64,000 nt of DNA, from positions 107,228 to 171,227 of the forward strand of contig JAJYID010000001.1 in the NCBI GenBank assembly GCA_021790235.1. Direction: 5' to 3'. Source of the DNA: a bacterium (lineage in GTDB: Bacteria > Patescibacteriota > CPR2 > UBA1875 > JAJYID01). The notes beneath the pieces were generated by a model. It saw only the letters and a list, made by a program, of their open reading frames with translations, did not search any database and was not told where the DNA came from. This document shows, piece by piece, positions 3,818 through 59,425 of the stretch. A program made the position numbers and the translations under genes. How positions within the stretch are numbered: position 1 is the first letter of the stretch; each line of letters starts with the position of its first letter.

Positions 3818-3946
3818 ATGCCTGAACTTCCCGAAGTTGGTACTCCTCACTGTCATTTCGTGCCCCGACACGGAAACCATAACAATAAGATTCCCGATCG
3901 GGTCGGGAATGACATAAAAGAAAATGCCAGAATTGCCAGAAGTTGA
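3818..3946 (+). other. 42-codon upstream ORF beginning with a second copy of the mutM start (MPELPEV), preceded by a strong SD (aggag)
   Basis: 'atgcctgaacttcccgaagttg' at 3818 versus 'atgccagaattgccagaagttg' at 3924. The uORF reads through the inserted repeat and stops at TGA 3944-3946, out of frame with mutM. Confidence 0.35.
3851..3914. repeat. Full-length miniature hairpin repeat element (64 bp) with TIR tgtcatt/aatgaca and two internal hairpins
   Basis: Sequence is tgtcatttcgtgccccgacacggaaacc...attcccgatcgggtcgggaatgaca. The stems are ttcgtg/cacggaa and attcccga/tcgggaat. Confidence 0.7.
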
Positions 3947-4808
3947 GACTGTCAAAAATGATTTAAAATCAAAAATTACCGGAACGAAAATAGTGTCGGT
4001 TAACGCTCTATGGCCTGGCATTGTCAAAGACACCCCATACAAGGTTTTTGTAAAACAGGTAGAGGGAGCTGAAATTATAAAGGTTAAAAGACGGGCTAAA
4101 AATCTGATTATTTCTCTTTCGAATGGCCTAAATTTGCTGGTTCATCTCAAGATGACCGGACACTTTTTGATTGCTGAATCCTCGGCTGAAATTTCTAAGG
4201 AAGGTAAATGGTTAAAAGCCAAGAATACAGATCTACTAAATGACCGGCAAAACCAATTTATTCGTATTATCTTTTATTTGGACAACGGCATGATTTTAGC
4301 GATGAGCGATATGAGAAAGTTCGCTTACATTAAACTTGTTGGTGATAAGGAGTTACAAACATTCCTTTCTTCTTATGGGCCAGAGCCGTTCAGTCCGGAG
4401 TTTACAGAGGAGAGACTAAAGAAAATTTTACGAGCAAAAAACATCGTTGTAAAAAAAGTTCTGATGGATCAGTCGAAAATTGCCGGTATTGGCAATATTT
4501 ATGCCGATGAAATTCTCTGGGCAGCGCGGGTTCATCCGCTATCAGTCTCTTATAAATTATCTGATCAAGATGTCAAAGCAATTTATCAAAATATCAAGAA
4601 AATATTAAAATTGGCCATAGAAAAACGCGGTACGTCAACCTCAGACTTTCGCGATACGAGCGGACGAAAGGGCACATTTGGTGATCTAAGAAATGTTTAT
4701 AGAAGGACTGATCTTCCTTGCCCTGAATGCGGTGGGTCGGTTAAAAAAATAACGGTAGGCGGTCGAGGCACTCATTTCTGTCCTGTTTGCCAAAAAGAGG
4801 TGAAATGA
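3924..4808 (+). CDS. mutM: Formamidopyrimidine-DNA glycosylase
   Basis: N-terminal MPELPEVETV (catalytic Pro2) and a C-terminal zinc finger CPECGG...HFCPVCQ. Confidence 0.9.
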   Translation: MPELPEVETVKNDLKSKITGTKIVSVNALWPGIVKDTPYKVFVKQVEGAEIIKVKRRAKNLIISLSNGLNLLVHLKMTGHFLIAESSAEISKEGKWLKAKNTDLLNDRQNQFIRIIFYLDNGMILAMSDMRKFAYIKLVGDKELQTFLSSYGPEPFSPEFTEERLKKILRAKNIVVKKVLMDQSKIAGIGNIYADEILWAARVHPLSVSYKLSDQDVKAIYQNIKKILKLAIEKRGTSTSDFRDTSGRKGTFGDLRNVYRRTDLPCPECGGSVKKITVGGRGTHFCPVCQKEVK

Positions 4809-14087: not shown

Positions 14088-14203
14088 ATTAAGCATATTT
14101 TACTTCTATTTGGTGTTAAAGACAAGGTGGGCAGTTGTTGGTGGTTTTCTTTTTCTAGGGCTTTATAGATTGAATCTGAGACTAAGAGTATGAACGTATT
14201 AAC

Positions 14204-14279
14204 ATATAAATATTAGCGTAGTGATTTTTTAAAAATTAAGCACAAATTTAACAAAAAGTAGTGTCAGTAGGCTGACACT
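14204..14279 (-). repeat. Left copy of an approximately 78-bp inverted repeat (hairpin agtgtcag-tagg-ctgacact plus conserved 27-mer)
   Basis: The reverse complement of 14204-14230 (aaaaaatcactacgctaatatttatat) matches 20355-20381 at 25 of 27 positions. The hairpin at 14260-14279 matches 20302-20329. Confidence 0.65.
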
Positions 14280-14414: not shown

Positions 14415-15104
14415 ATGCAAATAACTGAGGAAAATATTGCAAATGCTGAGGATTTGTCAGCGATCAATGAGCTCGTTTCAAAGTGTGAGTGTTGTGTCCT
14501 GCATGAGACAAAGACCAAGGATGTGCCGGGTGTCGGAAATGAGCATGCCGAGGTGATGTTTATCGGTGAAGCGCCCGGAAAAGATGAGGACTTGCAAGGC
14601 GAACCGTTTGTCGGTCGAGCTGGGCAGCTTCTAACGGGATTAATTCAAGGATTAGGTTGGGAGCGAAAAGATGCTTATATTGCAAATATTTTAAAACATC
14701 GGCCGCCGAACAACCGTGATCCCAAGCCGGAAGAGGCTGAAGCTTGCTGGCCGTATTTAAAGAGACAGATTCAACTAATCGATCCCAAACTAATCGTATT
14801 TTTAGGCCGACATGCCATGAACCGATTTTTTCCGACATTACAGATATCAAAGGTTCACGGAAATGCATTTCGAAAGGAGTTACATTTTGAAGGACTGGAT
14901 TCCCGCCTCCGCGGGAATGGCAAAGGAGGCCGAAAACAAGTATTTTTAGCCTTGTATCATCCGGCAGTAGCGCTGTATAACGGCTCAATGAAAGAAACAT
15001 TGCAAACCGATTTCAATAAAATTCCCAAGATACTCGCGAAAATTGACGAAGAAAATGACCTTCAAAATGACAAGAGGGAAAATAAGCAGACAAAATTATT
15101 TTGA
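14415..15104 (+). CDS. Uracil-DNA glycosylase, family 4, carrying an in-frame repeat-derived insertion
   Basis: [23 protein letters not shown] and YHPAVALYN motifs, with a Cys cluster CECCVLH near the N-terminus. Confidence 0.85.
14864..14922. repeat. Hairpin repeat family element inside the udg coding sequence
   Basis: tgcatttcgaaagg...ggattcccgcctccgcgggaatggca, with the perfect palindrome attcccgc/gcgggaat at 14899-14918. It encodes [19 protein letters not shown]. Confidence 0.55.
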
Positions 15105-15269: not shown

Positions 15270-17072
15270 ATGAACGTGCAAACTAAACTTAAAAAACCGA
15301 AAAGAAAGATGCCGACAGCTCATGATATTGCCATAAAACAAAAAAATATCAAGACGACAAACGAGAGTGTCATACAAAGTTCTCACCAGACAACAACAGG
15401 AAAGGGAGTTTTGAAGATTATCCCTCTCGGCGGTGTTGGTGAGATTGGTAAAAACTTGACCGTCTATGAATACGATAATGACATTATCATCATCGATATG
15501 GGTTTTATATTCCCTGATAGCGATATGCTAGGAGTGGATTACCTTATTCCCGATGTTTCCTATTTACAAGATAAAAAGGATAAAATAAGAGGTGTTTTAA
15601 TCACTCATGGTCATGAAGACCATATTGGAGGTATTCCTTATATTATGCCTCAAATCAGCGCTCCGATTTATGCTCCAAAGCTGACTTGCGGACTGATTGA
15701 AGCAAAACTGGAAGAACACCCTCAGGCAAGAGGAGTAAAACTTAATGTAATTGATCCGGACAAGGACAAGATCAAGCTTGGCGCCTTTGAAATCGAATGG
15801 TTTCGCGTAGCGCACTCGATACCGGATGCTGTCGGAATTGTGCTAAAAACTCCGACCACGGGTCGAGTTATCTATACCGGAGATTTTCGTTTCGACCATT
15901 CCCCAGTGGATGGGCGGAAAACTGATATTGCCAAACTCTCCAAACTTGGTGATGAAGGTGTACTTGCCCTTCTTTCGGATAGTACAAATGCTGAGGTGCC
16001 GGGTTTCTCTATAAGTGAGAAAACCATTGCCGGCACATTTGACAGTATTTTTGAAAAAGCTGAAGGGCGTATTATTATCGCCTCATTTGCTTCTCAAATT
16101 AACAGAATCCAAATGGTAATAAATGCCACTCAGAAACATAATCGAAGAATTGCTTTTTCTGGTAGGAGCTTGCTTCGCAATATTGAAGTGGCTGTTCGTC
16201 TCGGATATCTCAAAATTCCGCAAGGCCTTGCTGTCAAAATTCAGGATATTGGCAACCTTCCGGCGAATCGGGTGGTAGTTATGAGTACCGGTTCACAAGG
16301 TGAAGCGATGTCGGCCTTGTCGAGAATGGCTAGAGGTGAACATAAACAGGTGAAGATTGGTAAAGGCGATACAGTGGTGTATTCATCCTCGCCCATTCCG
16401 GGTAATGAATCTGCAATCACTGCTGTCGTCGATGACCTTTTCAGGCGGGGTGCGGAAGTAGTCTTTGATGAGAAAAACGGTTCACGTACTCATGTGTCGG
16501 GTCATCCGGGGCAAGAGGAGTTAAAGCTGATGATGGAGCTGGTGCGTCCGAAATATCTGGTTCCTTGGCATGGTGAAGTTCATCATCTAGTTCATCACGC
16601 TCAGTTGGCGCAAGAGGTTGGTATTCCTAAAGAAAATACACCGATCCTTGATATTGGTGATGTTATGGAAGTGACGAATGACAGAGTGGTGAAAACTGAC
16701 AGGCGAGTCCAGAACGGGGTAGTGCTTGTCGATGGTCTCGGCATCGGCGATGTCGGTGAAATAGTCCTTCGTGATCGTAAAGTGATGGCAACTGAAGGTA
16801 TGTTTGTGGTCATATGTACGGTTGATAAAAAAACGGGCCGACTCTTAACTTCACCGGATATCATTTCCCGCGGATTCATTTACATGCGGGAAAACGAACA
16901 GTTGGTTAATAACGCTCGGAATGAAGTGAAGAAGATGATGGCTAGGCATGATGGCGAATCGCTGCCTGACTGGATGAAAATGAAACTAAAAATCCGCGAT
17001 CATGTCAGCAACTATCTCTATAGCCATACCAAAAGAAGCCCGATGGTTATCTCAGTGATAATAGAGGTGTAA
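15270..17072 (+). CDS. rnj: Ribonuclease J
   Basis: Metallo-beta-lactamase/beta-CASP enzyme with HGHEDHIGG. SD aaaggagg. Confidence 0.9.
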   Translation: MNVQTKLKKPKRKMPTAHDIAIKQKNIKTTNESVIQSSHQTTTGKGVLKIIPLGGVGEIGKNLTVYEYDNDIIIIDMGFIFPDSDMLGVDYLIPDVSYLQDKKDKIRGVLITHGHEDHIGGIPYIMPQISAPIYAPKLTCGLIEAKLEEHPQARGVKLNVIDPDKDKIKLGAFEIEWFRVAHSIPDAVGIVLKTPTTGRVIYTGDFRFDHSPVDGRKTDIAKLSKLGDEGVLALLSDSTNAEVPGFSISEKTIAGTFDSIFEKAEGRIIIASFASQINRIQMVINATQKHNRRIAFSGRSLLRNIEVAVRLGYLKIPQGLAVKIQDIGNLPANRVVVMSTGSQGEAMSALSRMARGEHKQVKIGKGDTVVYSSSPIPGNESAITAVVDDLFRRGAEVVFDEKNGSRTHVSGHPGQEELKLMMELVRPKYLVPWHGEVHHLVHHAQLAQEVGIPKENTPILDIGDVMEVTNDRVVKTDRRVQNGVVLVDGLGIGDVGEIVLRDRKVMATEGMFVVICTVDKKTGRLLTSPDIISRGFIYMRENEQLVNNARNEVKKMMARHDGESLPDWMKMKLKIRDHVSNYLYSHTKRSPMVISVIIEV

Positions 17073-19345: not shown

Positions 19346-20307
19346 TGACACCGGCAAAATTTATTAGAACTACAATCTCAGAACGAGAGGTATTAGGAGA
19401 GAAACTAGCCAAAAAGAGAAATTCTCTTCATTTGGATCTCAAAGATGTCGAAAAGGCTACGAAAATTCCAGCCCGCCATGTCAAAAATATCGAGGAAGGC
19501 AACTTTACTAAACTGCCGCCAGACGTTTATACCAGAGGATTCGTAAGGACTTATGCTGCCTTTTTAGGCCTGAACGTCAAAAAAATTATCAACTCTTATG
19601 ATAAGGAAAGGGGACTTGAAAAAAAGCTGAAGATGAAGGATAAACCATCTCCTCAGCCAAAAACAACACTGAAAACTCCGCGAATGGTTCTAACCCCTAA
19701 AAAATTAATTGCTCTAGGGTCGTCTCTGGCGGTTTTGGCAATTCTTTTTTTCATTGGCTGGCAAATTAAAATCTTGTCGGCACCGCCGGTTCTAAATGTG
19801 ACTAGTCCGGCTGACAACTCAAATGTCAGTGAAGACTATATTTATGTGGCGGGTCAAACTGACCGGGATGCTGATCTCTACATTAATGATGTTAAAGTTG
19901 GTACTGACGATACCGGAACCTTCAAAGAAAGAGTGAGTTTACAAGATGGAGTGAATATTATTGAAATTAAGGCAAAGAATAAAATGGACAAGCAAACTGT
20001 TGTGGAACGTAAGATCTCAGCGACGTTGCCGCTTACGACTGCTACGGTTGATAGAACTATTTATCCTTTGGAAGTTAAGGTCGTTATCGGCCCTCATCCA
20101 GCAAATGTCGAAATAGTGCGCGATGGCGAAAAGCTTAATGTGTCCGGAGTGATGTTGGCCGGATCAACTCAAATCTTTTATGCTCAAAACAATATTGTGC
20201 TATCAACGAACAACGCCGGTAGTACGAAGGTGATTTTGAATGGCAAAGATTTAGGGCCGCTCGGTCAAGAAGGACAAACTATAAAGGACAAAAAGTTTTC
20301 GAAATAG
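19345..20307 (+). CDS. RodZ-like HTH/DUF4115 membrane protein
   Basis: An N-terminal HTH (...RGFVRTYAAFLGL), one transmembrane segment and a C-terminal beta domain. Confidence 0.7.
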   Translation: MTPAKFIRTTISEREVLGEKLAKKRNSLHLDLKDVEKATKIPARHVKNIEEGNFTKLPPDVYTRGFVRTYAAFLGLNVKKIINSYDKERGLEKKLKMKDKPSPQPKTTLKTPRMVLTPKKLIALGSSLAVLAILFFIGWQIKILSAPPVLNVTSPADNSNVSEDYIYVAGQTDRDADLYINDVKVGTDDTGTFKERVSLQDGVNIIEIKAKNKMDKQTVVERKISATLPLTTATVDRTIYPLEVKVVIGPHPANVEIVRDGEKLNVSGVMLAGSTQIFYAQNNIVLSTNNAGSTKVILNGKDLGPLGQEGQTIKDKKFSK

Positions 20308-20381
20308 TGTCAGCTTACTGACACTATTTTCGCCAATTTTAAACTTAAACCTTCAAAAAATCACTTCACTAATATTTATAT
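20302..20381 (+). repeat. Right copy of the inverted repeat; its hairpin doubles as the intrinsic terminator of the rodZ-like gene
   Basis: 12-bp stem aaatagtgtcag/ctgacactattt with loop ctta, overlapping stop codon 20305-20307. The conserved 27-mer lies at 20355-20381. Confidence 0.65.
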
Positions 20382-20623
20382 ATGAAAAGTAATTGTTTTT
20401 AACTACCACGATTATTGAATTAAACAAAAAAACTAATTCTTCCCTCTATTCTAATCCCACAAATCAGATATCCACGATATTCCCTAAACCCATCAGACTA
20501 TTTAAAAACAAAACTTTGCAGAACTTACCTCACCTTGAAGGTTCTATGGTATAATTTGATCATTCAAAACCTCTGGTTCTTGGTTCCTATTCAAAATTAA
20601 AATACTAAATTCAAGGAGACAAT

Positions 20624-28934: not shown

Positions 28935-30617
28935 GTGATAGCAGTGAAGAAACTATTCATAATAGTCATTGTCGCACTTGTTGTGGTGATGACACTGGCT
29001 GTCTTTGTCTCGCCGGCAATGGCGGCTTGTGACCTAAATGTCACAAGCTTCGGAATGTCAAGCAATTCAGGACAGGCGGGTGCGGCCTTCGATGTGTACG
29101 GAACATACACGGGAACGGCTGCCCCAACCGGCGACATCCTGTATGTGTTGCCGTCTGATCAGACGGATGTAATTGGGACGTTCAGTGCGACTGGAGGAAA
29201 TATCTCTGGCACAGCGACGATTCCATTAGATGCGACTGAGGGGGGACACCTAATTGACTATGTTCTACCCTTTAGTGATGCAACGTGTGGTGTGTATGGA
29301 CCAATACCTATTAGTACTTACACAGTTGTTGGCGGACCAGTGGCCAGAGATTATTACTGGACGTGGTATGACCAGCAGTCGCGGAATATGACTGACTGGG
29401 TTCTTATGGGCAATCCATCTACCACTAGTACCCTTAGTTTTAGTCTTAATATCGCTGGTAACGCTCAGATTGTTGGTGACCTTGGATATGGAGAAGGTAA
29501 GGTAGGACCACAAGAGACCTTAACTTCGACATATCCGGGAGTTATGGGCGGTCCGGTGAAAGTATCTTCATTAACTGGTGAGAAAGGTTTCGTAAGCCAA
29601 CGAGTACTGTTTGGTAACTCCTTTGAGGAGATACCAGGTATCGAAGAATCCCAGCTTTCTGGGCATTACTATTGGGCCTGGTACGACCAGCAATCTCCCG
29701 GCATGCTTAATTGGGTCCTAGTAGCCAACCCCAGTACCTCAGACGATGTCTACTATCAGATCAAGATTGCCGGCGACGTCAAGGATACCGGCAAGCTTGT
29801 CCCTGGGGATAAAGTTACACCAACCTTCCCGGGCGTCCTAGGCGGACCTGTCGAGGTTACTAGCTGTTCGGCAGCTTTTGACCAGTACGGGAATTGTTCG
29901 GGGACTAATCCCAAAGTCATCGCTTCCCAGCGGGTGCTGTCTAACTATGGTACTGCCTTCAATGAAGTACCTGGCATTCCGGCGAATGAACTTTCCGGAG
30001 ATTATCTCTGGACATGGTATGACAACCAAAGCCCAGGCGCTACTGATTGGGTCCTAGTAGCCAACCCCAGTACCTCAGACGATGTCTACTATCAGATCAA
30101 GATTGCCGGCGACGTCAAGGATACCGGCAAGCTTGTCCCTGGGGATAAAGTTACACCAACCTTCCCGGGCGTCCTAGGCGGACCTGTCGAGGTTACTAGC
30201 TGTTCGGCAGCTTTTGACCAGTACGGGAATTGTTCGGGGACTAATCCCAAAGTCATCGCTTCCCAGCGTAGTATCTGGGGTCCATCCTTTGAGGAGGTGC
30301 CGGGTATGTCGATCGGAAGCCTGTCTTGGGATTATGGTTGGACTTGGTATGACCAAAAGAGTCCTGGTTCTACTAACTGGATTTTGGTGGCCAATCCTGG
30401 TGATACACCTGTAGATTACCAGATTATAATTGGTGGTCAAGTCATGCCGACCAGTCTGGTGAATCCTGGGACGATCTCTGCTCATGGCAGGGTGACCCCC
30501 ACATTTCCAGGCGTGATGGGTGGCCCAGTTGAGATCGTAGCTGATGGTAAGGTGATTGCATCTCAACGAGTGCTCTGGAATGGATACTTTAATGAGGTAT
30601 TAGGGAGACAGTATTAA
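28935..30617 (+). CDS. Secreted protein with four ~105-112-aa modules of an unassigned repeat (W-x-W-Y-D...NPS...PGVxGGPV...ASQR)
   Basis: The signal peptide ends AMA. There is an N-terminal Ig-like region, then four modules starting YYWTWYDQQS, YYWAWYDQQS, YLWTWYDNQS and YGWTWYDQKS. Confidence 0.7.
   Translation: MIAVKKLFIIVIVALVVVMTLAVFVSPAMAACDLNVTSFGMSSNSGQAGAAFDVYGTYTGTAAPTGDILYVLPSDQTDVIGTFSATGGNISGTATIPLDATEGGHLIDYVLPFSDATCGVYGPIPISTYTVVGGPVARDYYWTWYDQQSRNMTDWVLMGNPSTTSTLSFSLNIAGNAQIVGDLGYGEGKVGPQETLTSTYPGVMGGPVKVSSLTGEKGFVSQRVLFGNSFEEIPGIEESQLSGHYYWAWYDQQSPGMLNWVLVANPSTSDDVYYQIKIAGDVKDTGKLVPGDKVTPTFPGVLGGPVEVTSCSAAFDQYGNCSGTNPKVIASQRVLSNYGTAFNEVPGIPANELSGDYLWTWYDNQSPGATDWVLVANPSTSDDVYYQIKIAGDVKDTGKLVPGDKVTPTFPGVLGGPVEVTSCSAAFDQYGNCSGTNPKVIASQRSIWGPSFEEVPGMSIGSLSWDYGWTWYDQKSPGSTNWILVANPGDTPVDYQIIIGGQVMPTSLVNPGTISAHGRVTPTFPGVMGGPVEIVADGKVIASQRVLWNGYFNEVLGRQY
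29710..30268 (+). repeat. Perfect 223-bp direct repeat (29710-29932 = 30046-30268, 336-bp period) inside the secreted-protein gene
   Basis: Base-by-base comparison of the two segments shows no mismatch. Confidence 0.9.
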
Positions 30618-35866: not shown

Positions 35867-37642
35867 ATGGCAGTTGGTAACGATAATAAATTAGAAGATC
35901 TACTAGTCAAGCTGGGTTTGATTACACAAAAACAGCTTGATCTTGTTAAGGTTGAAAGCGCAGAATCAGGAAAACCGATTACAGAGATTCTAGGTAACAT
36001 GCCTGATATCTCAAAAGAAGCTTTGACAAAGGCGATAGCTGTGACTTTGGAGCTTCCTTATGTTGACCTTTCTGCAAAAAAAATTGATAAAAATATTCTT
36101 GATATCATCAATGGAGATCTAGCCGGAAAGTACAAACTTATTCCCTTTGGTAAGGTTGGCGATTTTCTAAATGTAGCTATGGTTGATCCTAACAATATCA
36201 TGGCCATCGAATATATTGAGAAAAAAACAGGTCTTAAGCTGAAGCCCTACCTTGCATCTCAAGAAAGCATTGAAAAAGCTTTAAAACAATATGACGATGA
36301 TTACTCAGTAGAAGTTCAGAATGTGATTGGAACCCTTGAAAAACCGCCAGAAATTAATCTTAAGGAAGATAAGGGAAAGCAAGGAGAAGCTGCCGTTATT
36401 ACCCAAGATGCTCCGATTACCAGAGCTTTAAACACTATCCTAGAATATGCAGCCAAATCCAGGGCTTCCGATGTTCATATTGAGCCAAGAGAGAAATTGA
36501 TAAAAGTTAGATATCGTATAGATGGTATTTTGTATAATACCATGACTCTGCCGAAACATATCCATCCTGCTCTCGTGTCCAGGATTAAGATACTCTCAAA
36601 CCTTAAAATCGATGAACATCGTATTCCTCAGGATGGGCGTTTTCAGCTAAATCAGGATGGACGAGAAATAGATCTTCGTATTTCTATTACCCCGATAGTT
36701 TATGGTGAAAAAGTGGTAATACGTCTTTTAGATAAATCTACAGGTATTATTACGCTTGATAATCTCGGGATAAAGGGACGAGCTTTTAGAATTATAGAGG
36801 AAGGGACTAAAAAACCTCATGGTATGATTTTGGCAACCGGTCCGACCGGGTCCGGTAAGTCCACCTCGCTGTATGCGATTTTGTCAGAGATTAATAAACC
36901 TAGTGTCAATATTATCACAGTTGAAGATCCAGTAGAATATAACATCGACGGTATTAACCAGATCCAGGTAAATAATGCCGTCGGACTGACTTTTTCTTCA
37001 GGTTTACGTTCAATCTTGCGTCAAGACCCCGATGTAATTATGGTTGGAGAGATACGCGACAAGGAAACAGCTGAACTAGCCGTTCAGTCGGCTCTGACGG
37101 GGCATACCGTCCTTTCTACCCTTCATACGAACTCTGCCGCCGGTGCTTTACCTCGTCTCTTAGAGATGGAAATCGAACCATTTTTAATCGCTTCCACCGT
37201 CAATACTGTTATAGCGCAGCGTCTGGTTCGTAAAATATGTGATCATTGCAAAGAAGAATATCAGGCGAGTCCAGCTTTAACTCAGGCAATTAAAAAGTCA
37301 CTAAAAGATGTCTTGCCGTCGAAGAAAGATCCCTCTTCAAAAACTAGAGAACTTGGTTTCGATAAATTACCGAATACTGAAAATGAGGTATTTACACTTT
37401 ATAAAGGTAAAGGTTGTGATCAGTGTAAAAATACAGGTTACTGGGGTAGGACAGGAGTTTATGAGATTTTTAGCATTAATGAAAAGATGGAGAATCTTAT
37501 CACGACAGAAGCTACTTCGAGCGATATTCAAGATCAGGCGATAAAAGATGGAATGATCACTATGCGTCAAGACGGTTTTTTAAAAGCTCTGGCAGGTATT
37601 ACCACATTGGAGGAGGTGGTAAGAACTACGACTGAAGACTAG
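35867..37642 (+). CDS. pilB: Type IV pilus assembly ATPase PilB (GspE family)
   Basis: T2SSE N-domain, Walker A GPTGSGKST, and a tetracysteine motif CDHC...CDQC. Confidence 0.92.
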   Translation: MAVGNDNKLEDLLVKLGLITQKQLDLVKVESAESGKPITEILGNMPDISKEALTKAIAVTLELPYVDLSAKKIDKNILDIINGDLAGKYKLIPFGKVGDFLNVAMVDPNNIMAIEYIEKKTGLKLKPYLASQESIEKALKQYDDDYSVEVQNVIGTLEKPPEINLKEDKGKQGEAAVITQDAPITRALNTILEYAAKSRASDVHIEPREKLIKVRYRIDGILYNTMTLPKHIHPALVSRIKILSNLKIDEHRIPQDGRFQLNQDGREIDLRISITPIVYGEKVVIRLLDKSTGIITLDNLGIKGRAFRIIEEGTKKPHGMILATGPTGSGKSTSLYAILSEINKPSVNIITVEDPVEYNIDGINQIQVNNAVGLTFSSGLRSILRQDPDVIMVGEIRDKETAELAVQSALTGHTVLSTLHTNSAAGALPRLLEMEIEPFLIASTVNTVIAQRLVRKICDHCKEEYQASPALTQAIKKSLKDVLPSKKDPSSKTRELGFDKLPNTENEVFTLYKGKGCDQCKNTGYWGRTGVYEIFSINEKMENLITTEATSSDIQDQAIKDGMITMRQDGFLKALAGITTLEEVVRTTTED

Positions 37643-37723
37643 AAATATTACTTTTTAATTATAAGTCTTTAAATTTTAAACTGATAGTATTAGAATAAGA
37701 ATTATAGAAGGAGGGCTGGGAAG

Positions 37724-38797
37724 ATGCCGGAAACAACTAAACTAAAAATTGAAAATTTTCTAGAAGAGGTTATAAAACGTGATGCCAGTGATCTTCATTT
37801 AACGGTTGGTGTACCTCCTATGCTCCGAGTAGATGGTTCGCTGCAACCTATTGAAGATGCCAAAGGGCTTACTGACAAAGATGTTAAAGAATTGACTTAT
37901 TCCATTTTAGATGATGTTCAAAAAGATATTTTAGAAAGGGATAAAGAAGTAGACTTTTCGTTCACATATGGGGATCTCGCCAGATTTAGGGCAAATGCTT
38001 ATCACCAAAAAGGTAACGTCGGTTTAGCACTTCGTCTCATTCCGGTTAATATCAGAAGTCTATCACAGCTAGGTATGCCTCAGATAGTTGAAAAATTTAC
38101 AGATTTTTCTCGCGGCTTGGTACTTGTAACCGGTCCGACCGGGTCCGGTAAATCCACTACCTTAGCAGCCATGATTGATAAAATCAACTCAGAACGCGCA
38201 TGCCATATCATTACAGTTGAGGATCCGATCGAATATACTCATTCGCATAAAAAATCTCTAGTTGAACAGCGAGAAGTGCATTATGATACTCGTTCATTTG
38301 CGGCTGCACTCCGCAGTGTTCTCCGTGAAGATCCGGATGTTGTTTTAATCGGTGAAATGAGAGATTTGGAGACTATTGCCGCGGCTATTACTATTGCCGA
38401 AACAGGTCATCTGGTCTTGGCTACTTTGCATACAAACAGCGCTGCCCAGTCAGTTGACAGGATTATTGACGTCTTTCCACCCCATCAGCAACAACAGATC
38501 AGAGTGCAGCTTTCTAATATTTTACAAAGTATAGTTTCTCAAAGATTAATTCCTGCTATCGGAGGTGGAAGATTGGCGGCTGCGGAGATTTTGGTAGTGA
38601 ATGCTGCGGTTAGAAATATCATTAGAGAACAGAAGACACATCAGATAGAAGCAGTGATTCAGACCGGTTCTTCAGAAGGTATGCAATCTATGGATAGAAC
38701 TCTGGCAAACTTGATTAAAACTGGACGTATTACTCTGGAAGAGGCAAAGGGCTATGCAATCGATATCAAAGAGCTTGAACGTCTCTTACATGGATAA
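37724..38797 (+). CDS. pilT: Type IV pilus retraction ATPase PilT
   Basis: ASDLHLTVG, GPTGSGKSTT, and HLVLATLHTNSA. Confidence 0.92.
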   Translation: MPETTKLKIENFLEEVIKRDASDLHLTVGVPPMLRVDGSLQPIEDAKGLTDKDVKELTYSILDDVQKDILERDKEVDFSFTYGDLARFRANAYHQKGNVGLALRLIPVNIRSLSQLGMPQIVEKFTDFSRGLVLVTGPTGSGKSTTLAAMIDKINSERACHIITVEDPIEYTHSHKKSLVEQREVHYDTRSFAAALRSVLREDPDVVLIGEMRDLETIAAAITIAETGHLVLATLHTNSAAQSVDRIIDVFPPHQQQQIRVQLSNILQSIVSQRLIPAIGGGRLAAAEILVVNAAVRNIIREQKTHQIEAVIQTGSSEGMQSMDRTLANLIKTGRITLEEAKGYAIDIKELERLLHG

Positions 38798-40669: not shown

Positions 40670-41113
40670 ATGGAAGAGGGAGTGAAAAAGCTAAAAAAAA
40701 ATCAAGGTTTTACACTCATTGAGTTAGTCGTAGTTATGGCTATTATCGCTGTTTTAGCGGTGCTGGTTATAGGTGCTATCACGGTTGCTAGAAACACTGC
40801 TGCAGAAACTACAAATCGATCGAATGCTCGGACATTTCAAGCAGGTTTGGAAAAATATTTTTCTAATAATAAAAGTTATCCTGCCTACGTTGTTACCGGT
40901 GGTTTAGCCTCATTTGATACTTTGTACAACGATAATCTTAGAGATTTAGGCATTACGCATGCGGATTATCCCAGTGGCTGTGACACTACTGGTCAAGCAC
41001 ACGGTGGAGGCCAATATAGTTATAATTCTTCTACTGGTCAGTATACTCTTACGGTTTGGAACTATGATTGTACAAAAGTTTTATCCGGATCAAGCAATCA
41101 GTTTACCAACTAA
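40670..41113 (+). CDS. Type IV pilin (paralog 2)
   Basis: QG/FTLIELVVVMAIIAVLA. The ORF is open from 40625, but the start is chosen nearer the signal (MEEGVKKLKKNQG). Confidence 0.8.
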   Translation: MEEGVKKLKKNQGFTLIELVVVMAIIAVLAVLVIGAITVARNTAAETTNRSNARTFQAGLEKYFSNNKSYPAYVVTGGLASFDTLYNDNLRDLGITHADYPSGCDTTGQAHGGGQYSYNSSTGQYTLTVWNYDCTKVLSGSSNQFTN

Positions 41114-41127
41114 GATGATTAACAGTA

Positions 41128-41706
41128 ATGTTTTTGTATAAGAGAAAAAATATTTTCGGAAAATTAGAAGGTTTTACACTTATTGAGTTAGTCGTAGTTA
41201 TGGCTATTATTGCTCTTCTTGCCGCTTTAATCATAGGAGCCATCGCTATAACGCGCCAACAAGCCGATGTTACGAGGCTACGATCTGATGCTCATAATAT
41301 TCAGACAGCTTTAGAGGGATACTTTGCAAAGAACAGACATTTCCCTCCTGATTATCGAGTAGATGCCTACTCGCTTTATGCAGATACTTCTGCTTATTAT
41401 ACTGATGGCAAAACTTATGCAAACCAAGATGGAGCGCATCCTTTAAGTACTATGGGGGCATCATCTTGGCCCACTCCCCCGGCAAACAACGGCAGCAAGG
41501 GGCTGATATGTTACTCAGCCGGTCTCAACGCACAGGATTATTGGTTTTGGATCTTGACTCCGGGCGAGGTGCAAGCCGGTAAAGTGTGTATTGCCCCGAG
41601 TTGCACGAACTCTACTTGTGGATTTATAGCTGCAGATCCTGGCAGTAAGATTCATTGTCCGAATGGCACGACCTCGAGCGGTTGTTCATCTCAGTATTGG
41701 TATTAG
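41128..41706 (+). CDS. Type IV pilin (paralog 3, larger C-terminal domain with several Cys)
   Basis: EG/FTLIELVVVMAIIALLA. Confidence 0.8.
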   Translation: MFLYKRKNIFGKLEGFTLIELVVVMAIIALLAALIIGAIAITRQQADVTRLRSDAHNIQTALEGYFAKNRHFPPDYRVDAYSLYADTSAYYTDGKTYANQDGAHPLSTMGASSWPTPPANNGSKGLICYSAGLNAQDYWFWILTPGEVQAGKVCIAPSCTNSTCGFIAADPGSKIHCPNGTTSSGCSSQYWY

Positions 41707-41770
41707 AAAATTTGTTCTCTGTGTAAGACTGGAGGATAAGGCTGGGGACGGTTCTCTTTTTAAAGCAGAT

Positions 41771-41799
41771 TTGACGGAAACTTTCAAATTTTCTATAAT
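41771..41799 (+). promoter_or_regulatory. Sigma70-like promoter (TTGACG-17-TATAAT) of the transposase gene, 6 nt before the ATG (leaderless)
   Basis: ttgacg at 41771-41776, a 17-nt spacer, tataat at 41794-41799, and the ATG at 41806. Confidence 0.7.
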
Positions 41800-41805
41800 T
41801 TGTTT

Positions 41806-42489
41806 ATGCCCAGACAAGCTAGAATATTGCCACCGAACGGTTTTTATCATATCGTCTGCCGCGGAAACAACAAACAGAATATATTTCGGGATGATTCAGA
41901 TAAGGACAAATATCTTGAGTTGGCTTTAAGATACAAGGGAGAGCATCCCATGTCTCTATTCCATTATTGTTTAATGACTAATCATGTTCATTTGCTTCTT
42001 GAAACGAATGAACAAACTGATCTTTCAAACTTTATGAAAAGGCTTAATCTTGCCTATTTTCATCATTTTAAAAATAAATATGGTTATGTTGGCCATTTCT
42101 GGCAGGACAGATTCAAAAGCTTCTTAATCGAGCGGGATAACTATCTTTTGGTTTGTGGAAAGTATATCGAGCTGAACCCGGTAAGGGCTAAAATGGTGGC
42201 GAGACCTGAAGACTTTGAATACTCGAGTTATGGGTTTTATACTGATAACAAGAAGAGTGATATTTTAGAACACAACCCTCTGTTTTTTGAACTGAGCTCC
42301 AAGTCCAAGGATTGTTCTAGTCTGTACCGTGACTTTGTTGTGCCTCAAGAAGAGATAGAACAGAGGTTTAAGGGTCCCTTCTGGGGTAGTGAGAAATTTG
42401 TTACTAGAATGAGAAAGAGGCTTGACTATAAAAAGGCCGCTGTTCAAGCAGGTAGAAAGGTTAATTTTCGGAAAATCAAAGCGCAATAG
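41806..42489 (+). CDS. REP-associated tyrosine transposase-like / IS200-family Y1 (HUH) transposase
   Basis: FYHIVCRGNN, HUH motif TNHVHLLL, and the catalytic Tyr region YIELNPVRAKM. Confidence 0.8.
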   Translation: MPRQARILPPNGFYHIVCRGNNKQNIFRDDSDKDKYLELALRYKGEHPMSLFHYCLMTNHVHLLLETNEQTDLSNFMKRLNLAYFHHFKNKYGYVGHFWQDRFKSFLIERDNYLLVCGKYIELNPVRAKMVARPEDFEYSSYGFYTDNKKSDILEHNPLFFELSSKSKDCSSLYRDFVVPQEEIEQRFKGPFWGSEKFVTRMRKRLDYKKAAVQAGRKVNFRKIKAQ

Positions 42490-42555
42490 AGAACCGTCCC
42501 CTAAGTGGGGGATAATGTTCTTTTGTATTACTAGGTTGCTGAGTATAATATATTT

Positions 42556-43362
42556 ATGTTTATTTTCTTGATTTTGTTTTTTGTTTTTGGTCTGATCATT
42601 GGCAGTTTTTTGAATGTTCTGATATATAGATTAGAAAACAAAAAACGTAAAACTCTGTGGGGCAGGTCTTTTTGTCCTCATTGTGAGAAGCGAATTGAAT
42701 GGTATGATAATATTCCGGTTGTGTCCTTTCTGTTTTTGGGCGGCAAGTGCCGGCATTGCAAAAAGAAAATTTCCATTCAATACCCGCTGGTGGAGCTGAC
42801 AACAGGATTTTTGTTCGCACTGCTTTTTGTAATCCCGAACGGGGCAATGGCGGAGTTGGGGAATCCCTTTGCTTACATTAATTTAATCTTCTGGTTTTTC
42901 TTTGCCTCGTGTTTGATGGTTGTTTTTGTTTACGACTTAAAACATCAAATCATTCCGGACCAGGTAATTTATACTGCACTTATTACCGGCTTCCTCTATG
43001 TGTCAATGCAATTTGCTTTACTAGGAGACTTTAAATATTTAGCTGATCATCTGTCATCTGCATTGATTGCCGGAGGTTTTTTCTATATTTTAGCAGCCAT
43101 ATCAAACGGCAAATGGATGGGAGGAGGTGATATTAAACTGGTATCCTTCATGGGCTTAGTACTTGGATGGCAGGGTACTGTTATTTCTCTATATGTTGCT
43201 TTTGTTTTAGGTGCTATCATGGGCGTGATTTTGCTGATATCAAAGAAAAAAAAATTTGGTTCAAAGATCCCCTTTGGCCCTTTTCTAATCATAGGAAATT
43301 TTATAGGCCTTTTTTTTGGGGAGCAACTCATTAACTTTTATGTTAAAATGTTTTTAAGTTAA
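42556..43362 (+). CDS. pilD: Prepilin peptidase (A24 family) PilD
   Basis: Zinc-binding CPHC...CRHC, multiple transmembrane segments, and the catalytic region GGGDIKL. Confidence 0.9.
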   Translation: MFIFLILFFVFGLIIGSFLNVLIYRLENKKRKTLWGRSFCPHCEKRIEWYDNIPVVSFLFLGGKCRHCKKKISIQYPLVELTTGFLFALLFVIPNGAMAELGNPFAYINLIFWFFFASCLMVVFVYDLKHQIIPDQVIYTALITGFLYVSMQFALLGDFKYLADHLSSALIAGGFFYILAAISNGKWMGGGDIKLVSFMGLVLGWQGTVISLYVAFVLGAIMGVILLISKKKKFGSKIPFGPFLIIGNFIGLFFGEQLINFYVKMFLS

Positions 43363-43374
43363 CTGGATATTCTT

Positions 43375-44058
43375 ATGATGTGGAGGGTTAAAAATAATAA
43401 AGGATTTACACTGGTTGAGCTCATAGTGGTTATGTCAATAACCGGTATTTTGCTTGCGCTTATTTATGGCGGATATTCCAGTACCAGAAAAGGCCAGTAT
43501 GTTCAGTATATGGCGAATCTTACCCAGACTAATATCCGAAGCTCCTTTATAGATATTATCTCTACAAAAGTGGAAACAGCAGGTAACTGTAATGGTTTAT
43601 CGCCTGTGATAAAAGTTGTGGCAATAAAGTTAGGTTCATCTTCCACACCTATCACTGAGGTTCCTATTTGTAATGATAATAGTGGCGTACTGCAGGATCC
43701 GACTACGAATATTGAAACTATTGATCCGTCAGAGAGCTTAAATTTTCAGGAGAATTTAAGTATGGACTTTTGTACTCCTTATGCGACCAACTACTCTTGC
43801 ACTAATCCGACTAAAACAGGTTATCTTTATCTAATTTTTACAAGTCCATACGGAAAATATTACAGTTACTATAGTGGTTCAGATCAAATAACAGATTTAT
43901 GGACCTATCAAATTAGTAACTGGCAGCATAACGCAGATATGATTTATACGCCATCTAGTGACCCAAGTATAGGTTATATAACTCTTCATTTAACTGATGA
44001 TACCGGTAATACGTCAGAACTTAATATTACAGGTGTTGGTAATGTCGAAAAGCCATGA
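43375..44058 (+). CDS. Minor pilin / pseudopilin
   Basis: KG/FTLVELIVVMSITGILLA prepilin signal. Confidence 0.75.
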   Translation: MMWRVKNNKGFTLVELIVVMSITGILLALIYGGYSSTRKGQYVQYMANLTQTNIRSSFIDIISTKVETAGNCNGLSPVIKVVAIKLGSSSTPITEVPICNDNSGVLQDPTTNIETIDPSESLNFQENLSMDFCTPYATNYSCTNPTKTGYLYLIFTSPYGKYYSYYSGSDQITDLWTYQISNWQHNADMIYTPSSDPSIGYITLHLTDDTGNTSELNITGVGNVEKP

Positions 44059-44630
44059 GGATTTTAGATATGAGTTTCAAAATGATTAATAAAAAAGGAC
44101 AGAGTCTCGTTGAGGTCGTGGTAGCATGCGCTATTTTAGGTATTACTATGGCAGCGATTATGAGTATGGTAATCTCTTCAAAAAATCTTTTATATCAGTC
44201 CGAAGCACAGACTGAGGCTACAACTCTGGCTCAGGAAGGCATAGGTATAGTCCAGCATCAGCGTGATATCGGGTGCAGTTTTTCTAATATCACTACAAAT
44301 GGTGTGTTAAATGGTGCTAACGGTGGTTCAGACTTTGTGGTAAAAGGAGATCTGCTAAACGAGACCGGTGAGGATTTGGTTGCGGGTTCTATAACTTCTG
44401 CCACAAATATTGATGGTAATGGCAAAACCACTCAATTTGTCGGTTTTGAAAGGGGAATTGAAATCCAAGAATTAAGTGCCCTTGCGAGTAATCAAGTTGT
44501 GACAGGCTCGGGTTTTCAAGCGTCGGGTATCAATTATGACATCATAGATGATTATTACTACATTACTGTTACTGTGAATGGGCCGAATAATGCGAAATCG
44601 GAAATATCAACTATTATTTCAAAAAAGTAA
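44055..44630 (+). CDS. Minor pilin (PilV-like)
   Basis: KG/QSLVEVVVACAILGI prepilin-like signal. Confidence 0.6.
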   Translation: MRILDMSFKMINKKGQSLVEVVVACAILGITMAAIMSMVISSKNLLYQSEAQTEATTLAQEGIGIVQHQRDIGCSFSNITTNGVLNGANGGSDFVVKGDLLNETGEDLVAGSITSATNIDGNGKTTQFVGFERGIEIQELSALASNQVVTGSGFQASGINYDIIDDYYYITVTVNGPNNAKSEISTIISKK

Positions 44631-44633
44631 GAA

Positions 44634-45260
44634 ATGAAAAAGATTTTAAAAAATAAAAAAGGATTTACTTTGGTTGAACTTTTGGTAAGCATGGGGATTT
44701 TCGCTGTTGTTATAACAATGTGCGTCAGTTTCTTTATAGCAATGCAAAAGATGCAATCTGTCTATCGCGATCAAGCAAATTTGCAGCAGGAAGGAAGAAT
44801 TACTTCAAATATTTTTTCTATGCAGGTGAGTGATGCCGCAGTAGTTTATATTAATGATAAAAACAGTGATGGTAGTATTTGCAGTGATGCTGATGTGAAT
44901 AATAGGACTCAAAATAATGATTTTGAAGATTATATAGCGATAAAGAAAAATGTCAGTGACACAGAAGCGCTTGTCTTTGCCTGCCACGAGGACAATAGTA
45001 GTAATACACGATATTTAATGATGGGAACGCTCTCAGTTCCCGTCGGAACAGATCTCTCCCCGTTCACTATTAGTTCAGGTAATTTCGGGCAGCTTTCTTG
45101 GCTGTCTTCCAACCAAGTTACTATAGATGATTTTCAAGTGGCCAATAGTTCGACGACATATCCAAGAACTTTAAAATTCAATCTCAAAGTTAAAGGGTCT
45201 AGCGGGATTGCGCCGGAAATGCAGTTTCCCGGTTATCTGGTAATGAATAATGAACAATAA
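44634..45260 (+). CDS. Minor pilin (PilW-like)
   Basis: KG/FTLVELLVSMGIFAVV prepilin signal. Confidence 0.7.
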   Translation: MKKILKNKKGFTLVELLVSMGIFAVVITMCVSFFIAMQKMQSVYRDQANLQQEGRITSNIFSMQVSDAAVVYINDKNSDGSICSDADVNNRTQNNDFEDYIAIKKNVSDTEALVFACHEDNSSNTRYLMMGTLSVPVGTDLSPFTISSGNFGQLSWLSSNQVTIDDFQVANSSTTYPRTLKFNLKVKGSSGIAPEMQFPGYLVMNNEQ

Positions 45261-58501: not shown

Positions 58502-58954
58502 ATGAAAATATTATCTAAAAGCTCTAATGAAACGATTAAACTAGGTGAAGAAGTTGGCAAAAAGCTCTCCGGTGGAGAGATCTTTGCGCTTTACGGCGAT
58601 CTTGGCGGCGGGAAAACCCAGTTTACCAAAGGCATTGCTCTAGGCCTTGGCATCTCCGATCATATTCTTTCCCCGACATTCACCATTCGCCGCGAATATG
58701 AAGGTAAGAGACTGCATTTGCTGCATTACGATTTCTACCGATTTGAAGCTCCAGATCGGGAGCTAATTGAAAGTATGAAAGAAGGTATTGATCTTGATAA
58801 TGTGACGGCGATAGAATGGGCGGAGCGAGTGGAGAAACATTTGCCGAAAGACACGATTCAAGTCAGTTTTAAATACATTTCGGAAAACGAACGGGAAATA
58901 GAGATAGAAAATTATAATCCAGAACGTCATTCTGAGGAACGACGAATCTTATGA
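58502..58954 (+). CDS. tsaE: tRNA t6A biosynthesis ATPase TsaE
   Basis: GDLGGGKTQFTKG P-loop. The last approximately 10 codons (ERHSEERRIL) are encoded by a repeat unit. Confidence 0.85.
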   Translation: MKILSKSSNETIKLGEEVGKKLSGGEIFALYGDLGGGKTQFTKGIALGLGISDHILSPTFTIRREYEGKRLHLLHYDFYRFEAPDRELIESMKEGIDLDNVTAIEWAERVEKHLPKDTIQVSFKYISENEREIEIENYNPERHSEERRIL

Positions 58955-58993
58955 GATCTTTCCTTGTCCTTTCGGGAAGTCGTTCAAGATGAT
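58925..58993. repeat. Two inverted hairpin repeat units (58925-58948 on +, 58955-58993 on -)
   Basis: cgtcattctgaggaacgacgaatc on the + strand, and the reverse complement atcatcttgaacgacttcccgaaaggacaaggaaagatc. Confidence 0.65.
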
Positions 58994-59007
58994 AGAAAGA
59001 AAAGATT

Positions 59008-59289
59008 GTGTCATATTACGTCTACATTTTAGCAAATAGAAATAACAAAGTGCTTTATACGGGTATGACTAATAATCTCGAAAGAAGAATTTTCGAACAC
59101 AAAAATAAATTGATTAGGGGTTTTACCGAAAAATATAATTTGAATAAATTAGTATATTTTGAGGAATTTCCTACACCAAAAGAGGCCATAGAAAGTGAAA
59201 AAATGATTAAGGGATGGATTAGAAAAAAGAAAATTAAACTGATAGAATCAAAAAATATAAACTGGGATGATTTATCATTGTCATTCTGA
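59008..59289 (+). CDS. GIY-YIG nuclease family protein (UPF0213/YhbQ-like)
   Basis: YYVYILANRNNKVLYTGMTNNLERRIFEHK (GIY...YTG...R..EH), with a GTG start. Confidence 0.85.
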   Translation: MSYYVYILANRNNKVLYTGMTNNLERRIFEHKNKLIRGFTEKYNLNKLVYFEEFPTPKEAIESEKMIKGWIRKKKIKLIESKNINWDDLSLSF

Positions 59290-59411
59290 CGAAGGAAGAA
59301 TCTTTTTTGAGATCCTTCGTCGTTCCTCCTCAGGATGACAACTAAAGTATTAAGGATGACAATAATCAAAGACAATGTAACTAAGCCGGTCATTCTGAGG
59401 AACGAATAATC
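59279..59411. repeat. Cluster of hairpin repeat units (59279-59302 on +, 59311-59340 on -, 59388-59411 on +)
   Basis: tgtcattctgacgaaggaagaatc; the reverse complement tgtcatcctgaggaggaacgacgaaggatc; and ggtcattctgaggaacgaataatc. Confidence 0.7.
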
Positions 59412-59425
59412 TCATAAGAAAAATT

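Follow-up and report, generated by a model that had tools for sequence, protein, structure and literature searches.

The 64-kb window (the whole stretch of DNA that was analysed, from contig JAJYID010000001.1 of a Patescibacteriota bacterium) contains a gene for a family-4 uracil-DNA glycosylase (UDG) whose coding sequence carries a translated hairpin repeat. The insert adds 14 residues to the protein in frame, and its core is a copy of the repeat known as the CGTC-1 REP, dRS3, or NTS, a kind of Ssn-related motif (SRM). Sister and orthologous loci that were fetched for comparison are given as L-numbers, and protein homologues as P-numbers. The features of the locus are listed here by position in the window.

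14415..15104, plus strand: family-4 UDG gene, host of the insertion (open reading frame (ORF) of 229 aa; Pfam, TIGRFAM, and PDB matches)
14886..14927, plus strand: in-frame insertion of 42 nt = 14 aa, F158-G171, in the turn between strands 151-156 and 173-180 (empty-site orthologues, L013 junction, AlphaFold2 model)
14895..14922, minus strand: 28-mer TGCCATTCCCGCGGAGGCGGGAATCCAG of the CGTC-1 REP/NTS/SRM type, with the tag TGTC mutated to TGCC (3 mismatches to CGTCATTCCCGCGMAVGCGGGAATCYRG)
14899..14918, no strand assigned: perfect palindrome with 8-bp stems at 14899-14906 and 14911-14918 and a 4-nt loop at 14907-14910 (sequence; single-stranded DNA (ssDNA) fold of -8.9 kcal/mol)
14890..14894, plus strand: AAGGA, left copy of a 5-nt direct repeat abutting the 28-mer (direct reading of the sequence)
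14923..14927, plus strand: AAGGA, right copy of the 5-nt direct repeat (direct reading of the sequence)

Domain, family, and structure matches agree that the host gene encodes a family-4 UDG, as the initial annotation had proposed. The ORF matches Pfam PF03167 at 8.6e-35 and scores 194.6 bits against TIGR00758, for which the cut-off is 125.3. The top PDB matches of the protein are 4zbx (9e-45), 1vk2/1l9g, and 1ui0. Foldseek with the structure model gives 4zbx as the best match (TM 0.85) and also finds 1ui0 and 1l9g; the model superposes on the family-4 UDGs of S. tokodaii, T. thermophilus, and T. maritima with TM values up to 0.85. The 40 closest homologues, which are all from Patescibacteria and are 64-84% identical outside the insert, were aligned. 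Motif A (GEAPG, residues 51-55) and motif B (HPA, residues 182-184) are invariant in filled and empty proteins alike, and C24, C27, G51-G55, H182, and P183 are invariant across the alignment. Among the ligands for a [4Fe-4S] cluster, C24, C27, and C111 are present, while the third position is His95 (nt 14697-14699, in KHRPP), so that the protein has three of the four cysteines. Every one of the 40 clade members has this histidine, at a position where 4zbx, 1vk2, and 1ui0 have cysteine (KCRPP), which points to a 3Cys-1His set of ligands or to an altered cluster in the UDGs of the clade. The UDG gene is followed by RNase J in all seven homologue loci whose DNA was fetched, and because of this common synteny the seven loci are considered orthologous. 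The C-terminal tails of the UDG homologues P0003, P0018, P0031, and P0093 are variable and include the repeat-like peptides TPTLRSGQAK, PDASAGAGEK, STGSGQVS, and PVRQAQGKLREGSTL, a hint that other repeat families may also be translated at the 3' end of the gene.

The distribution of filled and empty sites supports a derived, in-frame insertion of a member of a repeat family. The site is empty in 35 of the 40 closest homologues, which read HG.AFRK[DE]... without extra residues. Extra residues are found exactly at the insertion point in the window protein, P0002, P0003, P0004, and P0007. The empty-site orthologues have the protein sequence AFRK[DE]FN-GRKQVF and the codons GCA TTY AGA AAA GAW TTY AAC GGN CGR AAR CAA; the window has the codons GCA TTT CGA AAG GAG TTA CAT TTT GAA GGA CTG GAT TCC CGC CTC CGC GGG AAT GGC AAA GGA GGC CGA AAA CAA. 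A genome scan found a sixth filled allele, L013, in which the ancestral EFN is kept and is followed by FERMDS...GAGKG-GRKQ. Since L013 retains EFN ahead of its insert, the insert in the window corresponds to F158-G171, nt 14886-14927. The alternative alignment of the insertion has 49 nt replacing 4 nt. The initial annotation recognized an in-frame insertion of a repeat-family element and described a stretch translated as 19 residues within the 229-aa ORF at 14415-15104, both of which hold. However, its insert size of 57-59 nt and 19 residues was too large, the L013 junction giving 42 nt and 14 residues. Its left border, tgcatttcg (N-A-F-R), is ancestral coding sequence found in every empty-site orthologue, and the spacing between the HG and HP motifs without the insert, which it put at about 13-14 residues in characterised family-4 UDGs, is 18 residues in the empty members of the clade.

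Other lineages also lack the insert. A census of 35 loci from species-representative genomes found turns of only 2-4 residues in all other lineages (including Moraniibacteriota, Howlettbacteria, metagenome-assembled genomes labelled as Saccharibacteria, and Oscillospiraceae), and the solved family-4 structures likewise have a short turn. The insert is missing in about 30 orthologues from other Patescibacteria and other lineages, and in the solved structures. A homologous loop in unrelated lineages, which the initial annotation had named as the sign of an ancestral feature, was searched for in the 40 homologues, the 35 loci, and the solved structures, and none was found. The proposed check of orthologues in sister genomes found both filled and empty alleles at syntenic UDG loci. 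Precise loss of the insert by deletion between the AAGGA repeats was also considered. This predicts the sequence ELHFEGGRKQ, but no such allele is present among the 40 homologues and 35 loci, and therefore the empty sites are ancestral. The AAGGA repeat is kept only loosely in the other filled alleles and is not conserved in L001, L006, and L008; by its sequence the pair is possibly a target duplication or microhomology. A target-site duplication or MITE model was rejected as evidence for transposition. The AAAGGAG pair (14873-79 and 14922-28) would mean an out-of-frame insertion of 49 nt, and the AAGGA pair is unconserved.

Both the repeat family to which the insert's core belongs and the phenomenon that it shows have been described before, so that the element is not new in kind. 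The perfect palindrome ATTCCCGC-CTCC-GCGGGAAT is present at 14899-14918 as first reported and occurs once in the 64-kb window. An 8-bp palindrome alone is unremarkable, with about one expected per 64 kb at a fixed loop size. The minus-strand 28-mer TGCCATTCCCGCGGAGGCGGGAATCCAG matches the NTS consensus CGTCATTCCCGCGMAVGCGGGAATCYRG at 25 of 28 positions, the mismatches being at positions 1, 3, and 14. It is the sole match to NTS in the window at three or fewer mismatches, and none of 100 shuffles has a match. With its three mismatches it lies outside the 1-mismatch NTS criterion of Chenal et al. 2025. Related copies have one mismatch (27/28 in L006, L008, and L011) or two (26/28 in L001 and L010). 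The tag next to the stem is TGCC in the window, one base off the TGTC found in L001, L006, L008, and L009, and the UDG inserts of L001, L006, and L008 fit the degenerate SRM pattern. Judged by these comparisons, the window copy is a slightly decayed member of the NTS/SRM family. It has the stem of a CGTC-1 repeat, with 8 bp, A-T as the first two pairs, and a 4-nt loop (minus strand ATTCCCGC-GGAG-GCGGGAAT), and it has the CCA tail (minus strand GGGAAT-CCA-G). The same 28-mer is found at unrelated places in sister genomes: L001 has it upstream of UDG, L011 has it within holA, and in L010 it flanks a GIY-YIG gene.

A wider family of hairpins is present in the sister loci. After the SRM pattern failed in the window, a structural scan was carried out for GTC and ATTC followed by a stem and GAAT. 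In the sister loci, scanning for GTCATTC revealed a repeat family of the form (Y)GTC-ATTC-stem-loop-stem-GAAT-CYAG, whose stems vary with compensating changes. There are 3-8 family hairpins per 8-20 kb in these loci, versus about 0.1-0.2 in shuffles. The window, covering 64 kb of the genome, has one CCCGC-type copy, one CCCGA-type copy, and several GTCATTC...GAATC variants. Other classes of element do not fit. The segment 13900-15300 has no Rfam match to a structured RNA at E up to 1. MITEs are 70-300 bp long with terminal inverted repeats of 15-30 bp and a target-site duplication, and here the unit is 28 nt and the AAGGA pair is unconserved. GTAG REPs and their RAYT proteins do not fit either, as the repeats here have a (T/C)GTC tag and are associated with GIY-YIG genes. 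The filler that flanks the 28-mer within the insert was considered as part of a longer repeat unit, but a metagenome scan for GCGGGAATCYRGTYCTTCAAAAT found one stretch, at the same UDG locus, and so the filler is unique to this locus.

Two bodies of work describe this repeat and its translation. Di Nocera et al. 2013 (BMC Genomics 14:522, PMC3733652) found that CGTC-1 REPs are the same as Neisseria dRS3 and R. conorii RPE-6. These repeats have the tag CGTC, with TGTC and CCTC tolerated, an 8-bp stem starting with AT, a 4-nt loop, and a CCA tail. Copies in frame in R. conorii, Micavibrio, and other organisms encode DSRLRGND, DSRFRGND, VIPAKAGI, and CHSRESGDP (PMC3733652). Many of the genes with intragenic copies function in DNA synthesis and repair, such as uvrA/B/C, recB, dnaE, and polA-like genes. 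UDG is not among the host genes listed, Patescibacteria are not among the five phyla surveyed, and no dedicated transposase was found for CGTC repeats (PMC3733652). The initial annotation had compared the insert to Rickettsia palindromic elements (RPEs), and this is literally right for the short RPE class, given the equation of CGTC-1 with RPE-6 (PMC3733652). Chenal et al. 2025 (Nat Commun 16:2388, PMC11893778) defined the NTS, which contains dRS3, and the broader SRM. The Ssn proteins are small single-domain GIY-YIG proteins (cd10448) that bind NTS/SRM hairpins as ssDNA only and cut a few nucleotides upstream, and SsnA modulates transformation in Neisseria. The three bases GTC most affect cleavage by SsnA, while the C after the palindrome matters most for binding. 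In N. meningitidis 2% of NTS are within genes, and as to movement only an insertion sequence-like architecture is noted (PMC11893778). A literature search for later work on Ssn and SRM found only Chenal et al. 2025.

The position and reading frame of the insert suggest that the protein tolerates it. The AlphaFold2 model of the UDG has a mean pLDDT of 78.8 and a pTM of 0.81. In this model strands 151-156 (AFRKEL) and 173-180 (RKQVFLAL) form a beta-hairpin and the insert is the connecting loop, with pLDDT below 50 at residues 161-170. In the empty orthologues a tight N-G turn links the two strands. The initial annotation had proposed a structure model to see whether its 19 residues form a surface loop. 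In the model the 14-residue insert is a low-confidence loop at the tip of the hairpin, and removal of the 19 residues would delete strand 151-156. The catalytic histidine of motif B is at the opposite end of strand 173-180, and, judged from the family-4 fold, the insert loop probably points away from the GEAPG and HPA motifs. The frame of the gene is kept because the insert is 42 nt long. When the NTS consensus is read in all six frames, four have no stop codon in any of the 24 variants, while frame -3 always has a TGA. Frame -1, which is used in the UDG, is open in 24 of 24 variants and reads LDSR[FLV]RGND; the window insert encodes LDSRLRGNG. Since these frames of the repeat are open, selection need only filter frame and position. 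In the flanking coding sequence of the filled alleles, 64 of 100 third codon positions are variable compared to 17 of 100 second positions, and this bias shows purifying selection on the filled proteins. The inserts range from 14 to 41 residues among the filled alleles. These patterns are consistent with a filled UDG that stays functional and carries the insert as a passenger.

The history of the filled alleles most likely involved one insertion followed by spread via homologous recombination. The six filled alleles (window, L001, L006, L008, L009, and L013) have a common insertion point. The window, L001, L006, L008, and L013 also have in common the non-repeat filler TTTGAAGGA (TTT GAA [GA]GA) and the 3' junction GKG-GRKQ, and because these five alleles are identical in insertion point and filler, the insert is considered to have a single origin. 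Nevertheless, the filled alleles are not a single clean clade, a possibility that was ruled out by neighbour-joining bootstraps: they group together in 0 of 100 replicates of the protein tree without the insert and in 0 of 200 replicates of nucleotide trees from either half of the gene. The window and L008 are sisters with 95% bootstrap support in the 3' half of the UDG gene and 0% in the 5' half. Their identity is 64-73% in the first 150 nt and 88-96% around and downstream of the insert, with an intragenic breakpoint near codon 90-100. The neighbouring RNase J (15270-17072) is 97.3% identical at the amino acid level between the window and L011, which has an empty UDG, while the UDG proteins are 79.4% identical. 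Between L006 and L008 the nucleotide identity is 94.7% for RNase J and 85.1% for UDG.

The insert has also grown in some of the alleles. L009 has 34 nt nested within the hairpin's loop, and L013 has a larger, imperfect hairpin. On the minus strand, L006 (10507-10549) and L008 (870-891) repeat the GTCATYC half-site immediately upstream of the hairpin, in partial copies of 21 nt arranged in tandem. At the protein level these half-site copies (GTCATYCNC) give GNDKREG/GDDKGGD/ENDPRT. The loop in L006 and L008 thus appears from its sequence to have grown stepwise, on the side where Ssn enzymes reportedly cut. In addition, family hairpins lie on both sides of the UDG gene in L001, L006, L008, L009, and L011.

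The stem of the hairpin is highly conserved at the DNA level. Five filled alleles (window, L001, L006, L008, and L009) agree at each of the 16 bases of the stem, and the sole variable column is in the loop. In a comparison of the window, L001, L006, and L008, 1 of 21 palindrome columns is variable versus 113 of 300 columns in the flanking coding sequence (Fisher p = 0.0015). For third codon positions the numbers are 1 of 7 and 64 of 100 (p = 0.014). At the lower local divergence of about 25%, the conservation has p = 0.019. It is compatible with constraint at the DNA level, with gene conversion, and with recent spread alike.

Candidate nuclease genes and additional copies of the repeat family are present in the window and in the sister genomes. 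The features of this kind in the window are listed below.

59008..59289, plus strand: single-domain GIY-YIG protein of 93 aa, candidate Ssn-type nuclease, between putative tsaE and tsaB (Pfam GIY-YIG 3.9e-18)
58926..58956, plus strand: GTCATTCTGAGGAACGACGAATC... repeat upstream of the GIY-YIG gene (repeat family D6; weak hairpin)
59280..59339, no strand assigned: head-to-head pair of the GTCATTCTGAGGAACGACGAATC-type repeat at the 3' end of the GIY-YIG gene (sequence scan)
59389..59419, plus strand: third copy of the GTCATTCTGAGGAACGA... repeat, upstream of putative tsaB (sequence scan)
3890..3913, minus strand: perfect family hairpin GTCATTCCCGA-CCCGA-TCGGGAATC, 11 nt upstream of an Fpg/MutM-like gene at 3924-4808 (ssDNA fold z = -3.66)

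The GIY-YIG protein of the window matches the UPF0213 structure 1zg2 in PDB at 1.7e-6 and is 53% identical to the GIY-YIG protein of L010. Its gene lies between ORFs that we take to be tsaE and tsaB. The upstream ORF of 165 aa, the putative tsaE, ends within the repeat at 58926-58956, which supplies its final residues (ERHSEERRIL) and its stop codon. The GTCATTCTGAGGAACGACGAATC-type repeats fold poorly into hairpins, and their assignment to a subtype is tentative. The region from 58926 to 59419, with three to four copies of these repeats, resembles an SRM-ssn-SRM cassette whose subtype of repeat appears to differ from that in the UDG gene. The Fpg/MutM-like ORF at 3924-4808 begins with MPELPEVETV and is a second DNA glycosylase gene adjoining a repeat of the family.

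Cassettes and in-frame copies recur in the clade. An SRM-GIY-YIG-SRM cassette is found between recA and recX in L006 (15538-15880), L008 (5978-6320), and L010 (20184-20538), while in L004 (15455-17063) recA and recX abut and the cassette is absent. This presence/absence polymorphism is as expected of a mobile unit. The GIY-YIG proteins of the sister-genome cassettes are small and single-domain, with lengths of 87-95 aa. In L010 inverted CCCGC-type SRMs are found on both sides of the gene, and comparison of the arm ctagatccccgcctccgcgggaatgaca with the UDG insert shows 3 differences in 28 positions. The metallophosphoesterase of L006 (635-1243) has a repeat-derived in-frame insert of 41 aa (GLDSRRSL...RDSSACCSAKSLGMTKEGGNDRGG), while its orthologues in the window, L004, and L011 are 161 aa long and do not have the insert. 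In holA of L011 (758-785) an NTS copy is translated as LCHSREGGNPDES.

It is highly probable that a CGTC-1-class repeat inserted in the turn of the UDG, was tolerated as a passenger, and spread from a single insertion by recombination. This account draws on five things that the analysis showed: what the repeat is, that it is derived, where it lies in the fold model, that the gene is mosaic, and that the stem is conserved at the DNA level. The element would have entered antisense into the codons of the tight beta-turn that joins the final two core strands of the UDG. The 42-nt unit would have kept the frame, with frame -1 open, and would be translated as ...LDSRLRGN[D/G]... in a floppy loop at the tip of the hairpin. 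Insertion would have occurred once, in a sub-lineage, after which UDG segments would have been exchanged between related genomes by homologous recombination; in some lineages nested or tandem additions would have followed. The element may have been mobilised through an ssDNA intermediate, by an Ssn-type nuclease or by a transposase or other enzyme. Several observations weigh against this account. The window copy has GCC instead of GTC at the bases critical for SsnA cleavage, although the C critical for binding is kept. Owing to this change the SRM pattern HGTCWYN(0-2)YYVSBRHN(0-5)WNVSBRGN(0-2)RNCYNB has no match in the window, and by analogy with SsnA any cognate Ssn of this genome may bind the copy yet cut it poorly. 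There is no second copy of the exact hairpin in the 64-kb window. The GIY-YIG gene of the window is flanked by what appears to be a different, weakly folding subtype, and the cognate nuclease in this genome is only a candidate. The insert includes 9-nt and 5-nt non-repeat flanks that the repeat does not account for, and no clean target duplication is conserved. The left junction of L009 is another one (CAT ATA GAT...), with AGA AAA codons as in the empty alleles, and this allele may be a deletion derivative or a second insertion event. Finally, movement of CGTC/SRM repeats is demonstrated in neither PMC3733652 nor PMC11893778.

Alternative explanations give a role to the hairpin, multiply the insertions, or do without a mobile repeat. 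The hairpin could be kept by selection at the DNA level, for example as a mark for Ssn binding or cleavage that controls recombination or transformation of the locus. The invariance of the stem in five diverged alleles, synonymous positions included, agrees with this, as do the bracketing of UDG by SRM hairpins in five loci, the mosaic UDG locus that diverges faster than RNase J (85% versus 94.7% nucleotide identity for L006 and L008), and the role of SsnA in transformation of Neisseria (PMC11893778). It is nevertheless unlikely, as recent spread of a segment or gene conversion would conserve the stem equally well and p is only 0.019 at the local divergence. The window copy is also without the GTC required for cleavage, many sister genomes thrive with an empty UDG site, and the Ssn proteins of these genomes are candidates. 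It is likewise rather doubtful that the hairpins within and near the UDG gene are preserved at the DNA level through the action of Ssn-type nucleases on their ssDNA during uptake, repair, or replication, in which case they would not be passive passengers. If they were, the bracketed gene would be a hotspot of allele exchange, cutting and repair upstream of the hairpin would yield the 21-nt tandem additions of L006 and L008, and nucleases would drive the growth and shuffling of surface loops in DNA-repair genes. Several independent insertions at the same codon, with beta-turn codons as a preferred target, would explain why filled alleles are scattered over the UDG tree, each beside an empty allele, and why L009 has its own left junction; REPs are also found at about the same site in recB of two Xanthomonas species (PMC3733652). 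However, independent events would not reproduce the filler TTTGAA[GA]GA and the GKG-GRKQ junction in the window, L001, L006, L008, and L013, and the intragenic breakpoint is directly supported by the bootstrap values of the two gene halves, which makes repeated insertion a poor candidate.

The remaining alternatives are far less credible. The length of the beta-turn loop varies among UDGs, the turns of the Howlettbacteria loci L027 and L034 are slightly longer, and a palindrome of 8 bp is expected about once per 64 kb, all of which could point to an ordinary or adaptive lineage-specific extension of the loop with a coincidental palindrome. Against this, 25 of the 28 positions of the 28-mer agree with a published consensus, which none of 100 shuffles matches, and the 28-mer recurs at unrelated sites in sister genomes. 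DSRLRGND is a documented translation of CGTC-1 (PMC3733652), and the loop has a length of anywhere from 14 to 41 residues and is predicted to lack order; such an extension is very improbable. An assembly artefact or a decaying pseudogene can hardly account for the data either. Metagenome-assembled genomes are the source of the sequences, and assembly can go wrong at repeats, but the identical UDG protein is recorded from two contigs. Independent assemblies from different samples and projects yielded filled alleles with the insert always at the same codon and in frame, the substitutions show the pattern of purifying selection, and the catalytic motifs are invariant.

The UDG insert has similarities to several known systems. 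Like the CGTC-1 REPs, the UDG copies have the stem ATTCCCGC/GCGGGAAT with 8 bp starting with AT, a 4-nt loop, and a CCA tail. CGTC-1 REPs in frame within genes, often genes of DNA synthesis or repair, encode peptides of the DSRLRGND, VIPAKAGI, or CHSRESGNP type, and the UDG copies are likewise translated in frame in a repair gene. In contrast to the CGTC-1 survey, the host organism belongs to Patescibacteria and the host gene is a family-4 UDG, the tag is TGCC, there are 9 + 5 nt of filler, and the copies in sister genomes are enlarged by nested additions and 21-nt tandem additions. The UDG copies resemble NTS/SRM at 25-27 of 28 positions, sister genomes have SRM-GIY-YIG-SRM cassettes, and the UDG bracketed by SRMs in several loci resembles the NTS-gene-NTS arrangement discussed for Neisseria. 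Unlike the NTS of N. meningitidis, of which 2% are intragenic, the copies here are translated within conserved housekeeping genes. The GIY-YIG gene of the window differs in that it appears to be flanked by another subtype, and the Ssn proteins of Patescibacteria are putative. Ogata and colleagues reportedly described, in 2000 (Science) and 2002 (Genome Res), selfish palindromic repeats that are in frame and translated in Rickettsia proteins, work that is summarised in PMC3733652. As in those elements, the UDG insert is in a surface region of a conserved protein and the ORF is retained. The classic RPE-1 spans about 100-150 bp, giving 30-50 residues, while the unit here is 28 nt with an insert of 14 aa and corresponds to the short RPE-6 class. 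Rickettsia is an obligate intracellular alphaproteobacterium, and the host here is a free-living or episymbiotic bacterium of the Candidate Phyla Radiation (CPR). Similar to GTAG REPs, BIMEs, and MITEs, these are short GC-rich multicopy hairpins that are occasionally intragenic, with a small nuclease gene between inverted copies. However, there is no GTAG tag and no tyrosine transposase of the IS200/IS605 type as in GTAG REPs and RAYT, the associated protein being a GIY-YIG nuclease, and at 28 nt, with no terminal inverted repeats or consistent target duplication, the unit is far too short for a MITE.

The window has other repeated features. An inverted pair of segments of about 80 nt (14199-14279 and 20306-20386, 77% identity), each with the palindrome AGTGTCAG-N4-CTGACACT, brackets a four-gene block that includes UDG and RNase J; by synteny with L011 the others would be FtsK and a RodZ-like gene (HTH_25). 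The window has no copies beyond these two, against a chance expectation of 0.01, and the 47 fetched loci have none. The pair may be an operator or another repeat. Tandem repeats at 29349-30355 consist of four units of 315-336 nt with 77-92% identity (families D1 and D3) and are presumably a repeated domain of a large protein. The regions 36816-38157 and 40694-44687 contain two paralogous ATPase genes with a Walker-type stretch and at least four genes that start with the prepilin-like sequence KGFTL[VI]EL (repeat families D4, D5, and D12). These genes suggest a type IV pilus or competence-like cluster, which would suit a setting of ssDNA uptake for Ssn-type nucleases.

The UDG insert extends translated CGTC-1/NTS/SRM hairpins to the CPR and to a base-excision repair glycosylase. 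The new aspects are the host phylum and host gene, the conservation of the stem inside a coding region, and a series of alleles that are filled, empty, or expanded and that show clear intragenic recombination. The results join three literatures on one element, namely those on RPE-6, on dRS3/NTS/SRM, and on CGTC-1 REPs. They also have uses in annotation, as they account for the recurrent DSRLRGND/VIPAKAGI/HSREGGNP peptides in CPR proteins and warn that protein trees of repeat-bearing genes can be mosaic. The filled, empty, and expanded alleles at syntenic loci are a compact natural experiment on the entry of a repeat, its tolerance by the host protein, and the effect of Ssn on recombination.

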